Source: a virus (lineage: Duplodnaviria; Heunggongvirae; Uroviricota; Caudoviricetes). Taken from it: DNA of 4,738 nucleotides. The DNA lies in the IMG/VR virus record IMGVR_UViG_2778261249_000005; one strand, written 5' to 3'. The position numbers and the translations under genes are program-made. This document shows positions 2,477 to 4,738 of the stretch, piece by piece. Under the pieces are notes generated by a model that searched no databases, was not told the DNA's origin, and saw only the letters and a program-made list of their open reading frames with translations. How positions within the stretch are numbered: the first letter of the stretch is position 1; the number at the start of each line of letters is the position of its first letter.

Positions 2477-2511
2477 GTTGTATGAACTCTGGTGTGAGCT
2501 TACATATCTAT

Positions 2512-2551
2512 GGCACAGAGTAAAGCCTAATCTGACAGTCCGCTCTGTGCC
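2512..2551. repeat. Inverted repeat (9-bp arms GGCACAGAG / CTCTGTGCC, 22-nt spacer) just downstream of G
   Basis: Seen directly in sequence. No U-tract follows on either strand, so it is not a canonical intrinsic terminator. It could be an RNA stem-loop or a recombination or regulatory site at the boundary of the cargo insertion. Confidence 0.4.
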
Positions 2552-2729
2552 AAAAGCGGGCGTTGATCACATGGGCTATGCTAACCCATTATAACAGTGT
2601 AACAGAGCTACCCACGATTACTCCCGGCCTCTAAAGTTTGCTACATAATAAAGAATCATTCCCTTTAATCTGATCTTAGCGGTATAGTATCTGGTGACCA
2701 GTAAGACAATCACCGACACTACAATCATG

Positions 2730-2757
2730 TTGATTTGCATTGTGTTTAGTCTAAAAT
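2730..2757 (+). promoter_or_regulatory. Candidate sigma70 promoter for the cargo cassette: -35 TTGATT (2730-2735), 16-nt spacer, -10 TAAAAT (2752-2757)
   Basis: Hexamers read by eye. Position about 50 nt upstream of the ATG at 2807 is appropriate. AT-rich DNA yields many chance hexamer matches, so confidence is low. Confidence 0.3.
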
Positions 2758-2806
2758 TGTGGTGCGAAAAGACCAATGAAAGTTATTGATAATAAGGAGG
2801 AATCAA

Positions 2807-3592
2807 ATGTCAGGAATAAGATGGTTGGATAAAAAAGATTTAATCCTTAAAGGAATAAATGAAGGCACCTACCCAGAATCAGTTTACAAGTTCAGAACTA
2901 TAGATAAAGCCTGTGATATTCTTCAAAAAAAAGAATTTTACTTTTCATCAGCGGAAAATTTTAATGATCCATTTGATTGTATGCTGGATGAGGAAAAAGA
3001 ATACTCTTTATCAGACTTTACTTGTTGGTTATATTCATATCAGAATGGATTAACCAAGAAGGCAAAGCAGAACTTAATAGATGTGTATAAAGAAAACAGC
3101 CAAGCATTTAATGATCTAGTTAAAAATATAAAAACAAAAGCCGTCAATGCCCATGGCATTTTATCGCTATCTAAAACTAATGAAAATGTTCTTTTATGGT
3201 CTCATTATGCGGAGAACCATACCGGAGTTGCTATAAAACTCAATATTGCTAAGGATCCAGAGTTCTTTATAACCCCCCAAAACATAGTATATATGAAGCA
3301 ATATATTCCATTAAATTATCTTAGAGACCCTAAAAAATCAATACTCGACACACTCTCTACGAAATCAATGGATTGGAATTATGAAGAGGAGATTAGAGTT
3401 TATAAAAGTAATATTGGAGCCTATAAGATTAAGCCAGAGGCAATAACTGATGTTTTTTTTGGTTTGAAAACGCTGGAACAGGATATTGCAAAAATCAAAA
3501 ATATATGTAGTGAAAATGGTCTAAGCCATGTGAAGTTTCATCGGGCTGAAAAAAAATATGGAGAATTTGCGCTACGTTTTAATCCTATTTGA
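2807..3592 (+). CDS. Hypothetical protein with DUF2971-like motifs, 261 aa; cargo gene 1
   Basis: Strong Shine-Dalgarno AGGAGG at 2795-2800, 6 nt before ATG 2807. The six-frame track begins at TTG 2786, which I consider less likely. The protein carries an FNDPFD motif (aa 52-57) and an LLWSHYAENHTGVAI motif (aa 129-143), which match my recollection of DUF2971 (PF11185) hallmarks (…fNDPfE… and …lMWshYAd.hkG…). Very AT-rich with a Lys/Asn/Ile-rich composition unlike the flanking phage genes. Confidence 0.75.
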   Translation: MSGIRWLDKKDLILKGINEGTYPESVYKFRTIDKACDILQKKEFYFSSAENFNDPFDCMLDEEKEYSLSDFTCWLYSYQNGLTKKAKQNLIDVYKENSQAFNDLVKNIKTKAVNAHGILSLSKTNENVLLWSHYAENHTGVAIKLNIAKDPEFFITPQNIVYMKQYIPLNYLRDPKKSILDTLSTKSMDWNYEEEIRVYKSNIGAYKIKPEAITDVFFGLKTLEQDIAKIKNICSENGLSHVKFHRAEKKYGEFALRFNPI

Positions 3593-3678
3593 CTTTTCTA
3601 TTTAGTAGTTAAATGATAGTGCATTACGGGCCAATTAAATTTAATTCTATGGTTGTGTAGACAATAAAAGGTAACTAG

Positions 3679-4164
3679 ATGAATCAAGATGAGTTAAAAA
3701 ATTTTTGTGTTGATGTGCGTGAAGCACTTGAGAAGATGACCAAAAAAGATCATTCACGGCTGTCATCCTTTAGAAATTCGAACTTTCCAGTGGGATGCTG
3801 CGGAGATACATCGAAACTGCTTGCTTATTTGCTTTATCAGCAATTCGGGATAGTCTCTGAAGTACTCGCAGGATATTACTATGAATCTGATCATAAGTCC
3901 CCCGCCAGCGGTCTTTCAAACGGTAATTCACATGCTTGGCTTGTCGTGGATGGAATGATTGTTGATTTGACTGCAGATCAGTTCAACGACCGGGGATATA
4001 ACAATCTTCCCGTCATGATTACATCAGACACTAGGTTTCATGACCTCTTTGCCAATCGTAATGCCTCGTTTCAACCTTCTCAAGGTAATGAAATTATTCT
4101 ACCTGATATTCTAAAAATGACAGCATCACATGTGCAGCAAAGGCTTAAAGAGCGAGGTTGGTAA
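3679..4164 (+). CDS. Hypothetical protein with transglutaminase-like / papain-fold Cys-His-Asp signature (putative cysteine peptidase or amidase), 161 aa; cargo gene 2
   Basis: AAGG at 3668-3671 precedes ATG 3679, which is immediately preceded by an in-frame TAG. Motif GCCGDTSKLLAYLLYQQFGIVSEVLAGYYY (Cys40/41, codons 3796-3801), then SHAWLVVDGMIVDLTADQF (His85 at 3931-3933; Asp100 at 3976-3978), resembles the transglutaminase-like core (G-C-x-x-fA … HAW-x-E-V … D-P-T). Same strand and composition as cargo gene 1, 86 nt downstream, so likely co-transcribed. Confidence 0.75.
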   Translation: MNQDELKNFCVDVREALEKMTKKDHSRLSSFRNSNFPVGCCGDTSKLLAYLLYQQFGIVSEVLAGYYYESDHKSPASGLSNGNSHAWLVVDGMIVDLTADQFNDRGYNNLPVMITSDTRFHDLFANRNASFQPSQGNEIILPDILKMTASHVQQRLKERGW

Positions 4165-4484
4165 TGCGGGTGCAGCAGAATCTAAAGCTGATACTTAAAA
4201 TTATATAGGAAGAGCATAAACTTATCCTAAATCTGGCTGTAATAGATCCTTTCATATATCGGCCAGATTAATATGAAGTAATCCAAATTAGTGTCTGAAA
4301 ATATAATCAGCTCCATAACAATAGATTTATCGCTTAAAAATAACGTCAACATGAGGGTAGAAAACATCCCTAAAGATAAGTCTGGTCTAACCTTTGCTCC
4401 TCGCTCAAAGCAGACTGTCAGAATTGATAGCGTTTGGGCTATGTAAATTGTCAGTCGGAAAATGAGTGAGTACAAATCAGGACA

Positions 4485-4511
4485 GGCGGGCGAATTGCCC
4501 GCCTTTTCTTT
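4485..4511 (+). terminator. Rho-independent terminator: stem GGCGGGC (4485-4491) / GCCCGCC (4497-4503), loop GAATT, followed by TTTTCTTT
   Basis: Perfect 7-bp GC-rich stem plus U-tract on the + strand, seen directly. Lies about 320 nt downstream of cargo gene 2 and about 100 nt upstream of FI, so it plausibly insulates cargo transcription from the late sheath operon. Confidence 0.6.
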
Positions 4512-4607: not shown

Positions 4608-4738
4608 ATGAGTGACTATCATCACGGCGTGCAGGTTCTGGAAATTAACGACGGCACCCGTGTCATTTCCACCGTATCCACTGCCATTGTCGGCATGGTC
4701 TGCACGGCCAGCGATGCGGATGCGGAAACCTTCCCCCT
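4608..4738 (+). CDS. FI: 5' end of tail sheath protein (P2 gpFI-like), truncated at window end
   Basis: [43 protein letters not shown] closely matches the recalled N-terminus of P2 gpFI. GGAG at 4596-4599 precedes ATG 4608. Confidence 0.92.

Follow-up and report, generated by a model that had tools for sequence, protein, structure and literature searches.

From bioinformatic work, proteins with a DUF2971 domain have been proposed to be DarT-like ADP-ribosyltransferases (ARTs); they would belong to the H-Y-E clade and have a conserved Tyr as well as an ExE motif (PMC12522546). Experiments identified one of them, Aristaios, encoded on a lactococcal plasmid, as a new system against phages (PMC11381338), and PDC-S31 is a candidate single-gene system in PADLOC. 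We describe here a DUF2971 gene (gene 1) that has its domain and predicted ART fold in common with PDC-S31 and the Lactococcus system Aristaios; whereas these are single-gene systems, a transglutaminase-like gene (gene 2) is attached downstream, both in the DNA studied here and in Serratia, Pectobacterium and Klebsiella. This DNA, called the window below, is the whole stretch of 4,738 nucleotides (nt) of a Caudoviricetes virus that was analyzed (IMG/VR record IMGVR_UViG_2778261249_000005), and gene 2 is our main subject. The pair also resembles DarT-DarG, in that a DarT-like ART comes first in a two-gene unit (PMC12522546); the difference is that gene 2 is not a Macro, NADAR or ARH hydrolase and is dispensable for other DUF2971 genes. 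The role of gene 2 bears on whether DUF2971 ADP-ribosyltransferase systems of the PDC-S31/Aristaios kind have a two-component variant. The two genes and the sequence between them are:

2807 to 3592, + strand: gene 1, 261 amino acids (aa), DUF2971, predicted DarT-like ADP-ribosyltransferase (Pfam DUF2971, 25 bits against a cut-off of 22; PADLOC PDC-S31, E 2e-46).
3593 to 3678, + strand: intergenic spacer of 86 nt, homologous in all cassette copies when the spacers are compared side by side.
3679 to 4164, + strand: gene 2, 161 aa, cytoplasmic single-domain protein of predicted transglutaminase/papain-like fold, with an ATG start and invariant Pro37, Cys41, His85, Trp87, Asp96 and Gln101.

Only the fold-level annotation of gene 2 was already known: older RefSeq/PGAP records label it 'hypothetical protein' and recent ones 'transglutaminase-like domain-containing protein'. 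Literature searches on PDC-S31, the RefSeq accessions, the PHROG, YunG/DUF2026 and the combination of transglutaminase-like proteins, ARTs and defense returned nothing specific on the gene 2 family, and a DUF2971 gene followed by a transglutaminase-like gene is not described in the papers found. The new elements are a corrected set of catalytic residues, an account of how large the family is and what signature it bears, the mobile DUF2971 cassette, a promiscuous defense-gene neighborhood and a fusion in a polyvalent protein.

Gene 2 is a real gene rather than a chance open reading frame (ORF). The initial annotation, made from the letters of the window, had located it exactly, and homolog clusters as well as the ratio of nonsynonymous to synonymous substitution rates (dN/dS, 0.19-0.59 against orthologs) mark it as such. 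Homologs form 24 clusters at E<=1e-32, in Enterobacterales, and an exhaustive profile search extends the family to 255 cluster representatives at E<=1e-10 and 1,705 at E<=1e-3. These ~1,700 clusters (50% identity) are spread over many bacterial phyla and their phages, and their carriers are phages, prophages, ICEs (integrative and conjugative elements) and plasmids. Members are mostly stand-alone proteins of ~150 aa with the signature FPxGCCGD ... SHAW ... DxTADQF, and neither Pfam, NCBIfam nor PADLOC includes a model specific to the family. Gene 2 matched nothing in NCBIfam or PADLOC; its sole strong match is a PHROG without assigned function.

Sequence variants of this domain are also on record. 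In one protein of 274 aa (P0120) the gene 2-type domain is duplicated in tandem, and each copy retains Cys, His, Asp and Gln. A frameshift allele of gene 2 (P0241), which encodes 92 aa, diverges after residue 75 and loses His85 and Asp96, occurs on 50 E. coli (Escherichia coli) contigs, the largest of 5.05 Mb; a run of five C residues in gene 2 (window 3900-3904) is listed with it. This allele may be a natural knockout.

We place gene 2, on the strength of its predicted structure, in the transglutaminase/papain-like cysteine hydrolase superfamily. The AlphaFold2 model, built with 22 homologs, has a mean predicted local distance difference test score (pLDDT) of 91.1 and a predicted template modeling score (pTM) of 0.88. 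It comprises an alpha+beta core, with a Cys at the N-terminus of a helix and an antiparallel sheet carrying His and Asp, and the Cys, His and Asp are conserved in that order. When 114 diverse members were scanned singly, weak matches (E<0.01 for YunG and Transglut_core) were obtained with YunG in 39, Transglut_core in 17 (best E 1.6e-6), Transglut_core3 in 7, DUF2026 in 6 and Tox-PLDMTX in 2, all of which we take to be transglutaminase/papain-like families. The YunG and Transglut_core matches span the S-H-A-W...D-I-T motif.

Several results weigh against this placement. Gene 2 has no significant match to any curated superfamily member: in Pfam, YunG (PF24585) reaches 24.0 bits against a cut-off of 27, with gene 2 residues 78-111 on profile positions 58-89 of 116, Transglut_core (PF01841) 13.5 against 23 and DUF2026 12.5 against 25. 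Sequence searches of the PDB gave nothing significant, whether run with a narrow or a wide profile, with the protein alone or with its core segment. The initial annotation had recognized the order and local context of the Cys, His and Asp residues as those of the transglutaminase-like superfamily and had proposed a Foldseek comparison as a check; order, motifs and model do fit, but no family match rises above threshold, and Foldseek of the model against the PDB gave no match below E 0.1. Foldseek against BFVD returned uncharacterized phage proteins only. Because the curated thresholds failed, we do not assign gene 2 to YunG, Transglut_core or DUF2026.

Conservation singles out the probable catalytic residues. 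When 146 diverse representatives were placed on the family profile, Pro37, Cys41, His85, Trp87, Asp96 and Gln101 were each present in 146/146, whereas Cys40 is kept in 123/146 (Ala, Trp, Ser, Thr or Gln in the other 23) and Asp100 in 137/146 (Ser, Val, Asn, Ala or Lys in the other nine). The same invariant set is found in a MAFFT alignment, with Cys41, His85 and Asp96 in 114/114. In the model, helix 41-56 begins at Cys41, strand 84-90 starts with His85, and the strand after it ends with Asp96. A Cys on a helix, a His on a strand and an Asp on the next strand form the canonical arrangement of the transglutaminase/papain fold, and the D-[IL]-T motif resembles the D-x-T of transglutaminase cores. 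Cys41-His85-Asp96 is thus the best-supported triad and most likely the active site, because it is invariant across diverse relatives and is placed canonically in the predicted structure; the invariant Gln101 is likely an additional active-site residue. Asp96 was chosen over Asp100 by conservation alone, not by geometry, and a point against this choice is that a simple hairpin register puts Thr98, not Asp96, opposite His85. The relevant codons are Cys40-Cys41 at 3796-3801 (Cys41 at 3799-3801), His85 at 3931-3933, Asp96 at 3964-3966, Asp100 at 3976-3978 and Gln101 at 3979-3981, and the corrected residues are direct targets for mutagenesis.

The triad given in the initial annotation was Cys40-His85-Asp100, of which two residues are probably wrong by the above counts and only His85 stands. 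It is very unlikely that this version is correct after all, with Cys40 as the nucleophile and Asp100 orienting His85. Cys40 and Asp100 are invariant among the 22 closest homologs, where both Cys, His85, Asp96 and Asp100 are all invariant, and therefore that set cannot discriminate. The His85-Asp100 spacing of 15 also resembles that of a typical transglutaminase core. However, relatives in which Cys40 or Asp100 is substituted still keep Cys41, His85 and Asp96, the model helix begins at residue 41 rather than 40, and domain copies in a polyvalent protein (see below) have Met or Gln at the Cys40 position and, in one copy, Ser at the Asp100 position. The doubled Cys, which had been called unusual, is present, but it is common in the family, though not invariant.

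Among proteins of known structure, the closest is Atu2299/DUF2026 (PDB 2hly), a structural-genomics protein without assigned function that is 13% identical to gene 2 and scores 12.5 bits against a cut-off of 25. It adds no mechanism, as its own function and context are undescribed. The closest characterized enzymes, namely Salmonella SseI (4g29), protein-glutaminase (2zk9/3a54/8z3i), LapG and the arylamine N-acetyltransferases (NATs), have only the fold in common with gene 2, and the sequence match to SseI is not significant (E 0.47). SseI and protein-glutaminase are secreted, unlike the small cytoplasmic gene 2 protein, in which no secretion signal is evident; the type of reaction is not inferable. 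YunG and Transglut_core give the commonest weak matches across the gene 2 family, which differs in its greater length (~150 aa) and in its own invariant FPxGCCGD and DxTADQF motifs. Identification of the substrate of the gene 2 enzyme would extend the enzymology of phage-host conflict by a new activity.

Turning to gene 1, its membership in PDC-S31/DUF2971 is indicated by the hidden Markov model matches and by the ART motifs SHY132-134 (Tyr of motif II) and E193xE195 (ExE of motif III); there is no NCBIfam match. NDP53-55, WSHYA131-135 and E193xE195 do not vary across 43 homologs, and the gene has a Shine-Dalgarno sequence (AAGGAGG) 7 nt upstream of its ATG. We also observed length variants near the 3' end of gene 1, at a run of eight A residues (window 3549-3556), that alter the last ~12-15 residues (P0248, P0249): a 258-aa form occurs on 11 contigs and a 265-aa form on seven, and the gene measures 787 nt in four complete genomes (GPEC464/606/1165/1185). 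Either slippage or homopolymer sequencing error may account for them. In an IMG/VR contig 98.6% identical to the window (L079, 5132-5911), two frameshifts break up gene 1 and leave gene 2 whole, which reflects either a pseudogene or an assembly error.

Are the two genes linked? A block corresponding to window positions ~2510-4414 recurs at ~80% nt identity in two Serratia-type prophages, where it lies beside the integrase, in a Pectobacterium ICE-like element and in a Klebsiella variicola lambdoid prophage. These copies preserve the gene order, a homologous spacer of 78-86 nt and the end sequences, with cassette homology ending at 4407-4414. The ribosome-binding site AAAGGTAAC ahead of gene 2 is conserved across the copies as well, and no terminator-like site was found between gene 1 and gene 2 in spacer 3593-3678. 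Protein identities are 69-74% for gene 1 and 76-78% for gene 2; that is, the two genes diverge in step. Furthermore, among complete E. coli genomes, gene 1 and gene 2 occur in exactly the same 12. As judged from these sequence comparisons, the two genes travel as a mobile two-gene cassette in a known prophage hotspot. Its boundaries and non-coding parts are:

~2566 to 4386, + strand: cargo insert relative to phage Wphi, of low guanine-plus-cytosine (GC) content; one ~1.9-kb block common to the Serratia, Pectobacterium and Klebsiella elements at ~80% nt identity.
2531 to 2557, no strand: left arm of an imperfect 27-nt inverted repeat bounding the cargo, from a repeat search; core GCTCTGTGCCAAAAGC; overlaps a hairpin at 2511-2520/2543-2552.
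4396 to 4422, no strand: right arm of the cargo-bounding inverted repeat, from a repeat search; core GATCCTCGCTCA.
2730 to 2757, + strand: candidate for a sigma-70-like promoter, upstream of gene 1 (TTGATT-16-TAAAAT), recognized solely by its match to the consensus and located in the block that every cassette copy conserves.
4230 to 4269, + strand: conserved 10-bp stem-loop of the cassette 3' region, from a repeat search (stem 4230-4239/4260-4269, loop of ~20 nt).

Conservation of the end cores (left GCTCTGTGCCAAAAGC, right GATCCTCGCTCA) extends to P2 phages that carry other cargo and to cassette copies in non-P2 elements. The 'Z-region' of P2-EC67 has a different cargo of its own, which is flanked by a left and a right inverted repeat in the annotation of its GenBank record. 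Together, the inverted repeats and conserved end cores suggest a repeat-bounded mobile moron unit or a recombination site. At the same site phage Wphi holds a different gene, orf44, and Wphi homology resumes at 4387. The cassette 3' region, ~250 nt 3' of gene 2 (window 4165-4414), is ~80% conserved in all copies, and the 10-bp stem within it is kept in four cassette copies with only wobble-compatible changes. A third gene in this conserved region was considered and rejected: ORFs are broken in the window and in L105, and none is consistently open on either strand.

With moderate confidence, we read gene 2 as an active thiol enzyme of phage-host conflict that would work with, or simply alongside, the DUF2971 ART, as an accessory or as a second effector. 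The candidate promoter, the DUF2971 gene, the 86-nt spacer and gene 2 form a 1.9-kb moron cassette bounded by an inverted repeat, whose two genes are presumably co-transcribed in the lysogen. The DUF2971 protein would then be an ADP-ribosylating anti-phage effector, and the gene 2 enzyme may covalently cleave, deamidate or cross-link some protein involved in that conflict. As an accessory it would process or license the ART or the target of the ART; alternatively, it would be a second effector.

A different explanation, which we regard as somewhat doubtful, is that gene 2 is an autonomous single-gene module, for defense or for another lysogenic conversion, that merely shares a mobile island with the DUF2971 gene. 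The following observations count in its favor and weigh against a partnership. Gene 1 orthologs at 60% (Providencia) and 34% (Aliarcobacter) identity have no gene 2 neighbor, and DUF2971 proteins work or occur alone elsewhere. A Klebsiella aerogenes ortholog of gene 2, 71% identical, adjoins a reverse transcriptase without gene 1. No DUF2971 neighbor was seen at ~100 loci of distant gene 2 relatives, and a recurrent partner sought at these loci by phmmer and neighbor clustering was not found beyond closely related loci, so that the wider family has no fixed neighbor. GC content also differs, at 31.9% in gene 1 and 40.9% in gene 2 (46-49% in the flanking tail genes). On the other side, both genes, their order and the homologous 78-86-nt spacer have been kept through at least four independent relocations, no terminator-like site separates them, and their co-occurrence in E. 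coli is strict.

Close orthologs of gene 2 adjoin other, unrelated systems, as would be expected of such a module: one (69%) lies 266 nt downstream of an McrB/McrC pair, another (59%) is convergent with a further McrBC-like pair, and a third (48%) lies 50 nt downstream of ApeA on the same strand, beside a prophage integrase. Distant relatives in a Pseudomonas phage and in Pseudomonas plasmids sit between an integrase and a gene of 1,650 aa encoding an AAA/nuclease protein. In a scan of PADLOC families near to and far from gene 2 relatives, the top families listed, given with no totals, were McrB-like RmrA, AbiU, ApeA, PDC-S58 and mad2 for the near set and methyltransferases only for the far set. 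This contrast is only suggestive of defense genes around the gene 2 family. In a separate observation, a Citrobacter lambdoid prophage (L002-L005; L002 5459-6939) carries a gene 2 homolog (48%) between a 144-aa protein with a hydrophobic N-terminus and a 120-aa protein, in a moron locus between the tail-fiber assembly and lysis genes; this is possibly a different three-gene unit.

The partnership of gene 2 with the DUF2971 ART might also be that of a toxin-antitoxin system, gene 2 being the antitoxin or immunity partner of a toxic ADP-ribosyltransferase as in DarTG. We consider this highly improbable. A two-gene layout with a DarT-like first gene does resemble a toxin-antitoxin system, but the predicted fold of gene 2 is papain-like rather than that of a Macro, NADAR or ARH protein, gene 1 orthologs occur without gene 2, a single-gene DUF2971 defense system is known, and most of the gene 2 family has no ART nearby. 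The frameshift allele without His85 and Asp96 described above, which is known here from gene 2 alone, points the same way. Gene 2 is probably not a classical antitoxin, because DUF2971 genes occur and work alone, gene 2 lacks an ADP-ribose-hydrolase fold and a frameshift allele of it is recorded.

An independent link between the gene 2 domain and an ART comes from a metagenomic protein of 3,200 aa (P0096). It contains three gene 2-type domains (~1450-1544, 1751-1849 and 2162-2228), a pyrophosphatase (InPase) domain (1571-1689), an ART-PolyVal domain (best stretch 2021-2089) and a match to NTP_transf_2. All three copies of the gene 2-type domain keep the equivalents of Cys41, His85, Asp96 and Gln101, and the domain has no match to the named polyvalent-protein domains in Pfam. 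From its domain matches, the architecture is that of a phage-type polyvalent protein, in which the gene 2 domain and an ART are joined as a fusion in one protein. This fusion speaks against gene 2 being an autonomous module. It is a single protein, and a homology search for further fusions of an ART with a transglutaminase-like domain found nothing, which tempers the link. Polyvalent proteins have been proposed to be injected effectors, and their embedded MPTase peptidase domains to release or activate neighboring effector domains (PMC5512222). The peptidase modules described by Iyer et al. (2017, PMC5512222) compare with the gene 2 domain, which flanks InPase and ART-PolyVal domains in one 3,200-aa protein; they differ in being zincin-like MPTase peptidases, not the gene 2 domain, and gene 2 is stand-alone.

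A counter-defense or host-takeover enzyme, directed at the immunity of the host and, for instance, cleaving or deamidating one of its defense proteins, would also fit some of these data: a phage-type polyvalent protein carries three copies of the gene 2-type domain along with InPase and ART-PolyVal, such proteins are proposed to be injected (PMC5512222), and the family is present in phage genomes and plasmids. We hold this to be decidedly unlikely for gene 2. Here the gene occupies a moron hotspot of a prophage and is arranged in operon-like fashion with a defense candidate, and its orthologs are found directly downstream of ApeA and McrBC. In addition, few anti-defense genes were reported in P2-like phages (in 28 P2 elements; PMC13586616). 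A reservation on the defensive side of our reading is that sequence does not tell defense and counter-defense apart.

The gene 2 family is large, has a clean Cys-His-Asp-Gln signature, stands repeatedly beside bona fide defense genes and is found within a known prophage defense hotspot. From these sequence relationships we infer a large family used in phage-host conflict and related to YunG and DUF2026. A bolder view, which we offer tentatively and think unlikely, is that it is an unrecognized, widespread conflict thiol peptidase or deamidase, acting either as a stand-alone anti-phage system or as a portable licensing or processing module for unrelated effectors (the DUF2971 ART, ApeA, McrBC and reverse transcriptase) and for the ART and InPase of injected polyvalent proteins. 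As an example of licensing, a gene 2-type enzyme might cleave an inhibitory segment or a phage-encoded inhibitor and thereby switch the effector on.

The window as a whole corresponds to the tail module of a P2-like prophage from E. coli. For P2, the literature names the Z/fun locus as a place of antiviral defenses and describes an accessory or defense hotspot within the tail genes (PMC13586616). An Rfam scan of the window gave nothing credible. Among 5,426 complete E. coli genomes, the flanks are matched in 1,027 and this cargo is found in only 12. The flanking features are:

80 to 1945, + strand: P2-type tail fiber gene H (Pfam Phage_tail_fib and Phage_fiber_2; PHROG 136; annotated prophage context).
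1949 to 2476, + strand: tail-fiber assembly gene G (Pfam Caudo_TAP; PHROG 136, cited for H and G together; annotated prophage context).
80 to 2476, + strand: genes H and G together, the left border of the Z/fun hotspot.
4484 to 4504, + strand: strong intrinsic-terminator-like hairpin (9 pairs, 7 of them GC, with a T-run), situated upstream of the sheath gene within conserved P2 flanking sequence.
4608 to 4738, + strand: start of the tail sheath gene FI, the right hotspot border (96% nt identity with FI of Wphi; the annotation of an E. coli prophage calls it tail sheath).

Within gene H, positions 598-955 hold ~2.7 tandem copies of a 132-nt unit that codes for the Phage_fiber_2 repeat. Beyond ~950 the GC content of this gene falls from ~55% to ~42%, suggesting that its receptor-binding C-terminal part is mosaic. 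At the other border, in a prophage of E. coli GPEC1042 (L001 22372-24674), an insertion of the IS21-family element ISEc12 separates the cargo from the sheath gene FI. The coding sequence annotated for FI there measures 1,134 nt against 1,191 nt in Wphi; this prophage may be defective.
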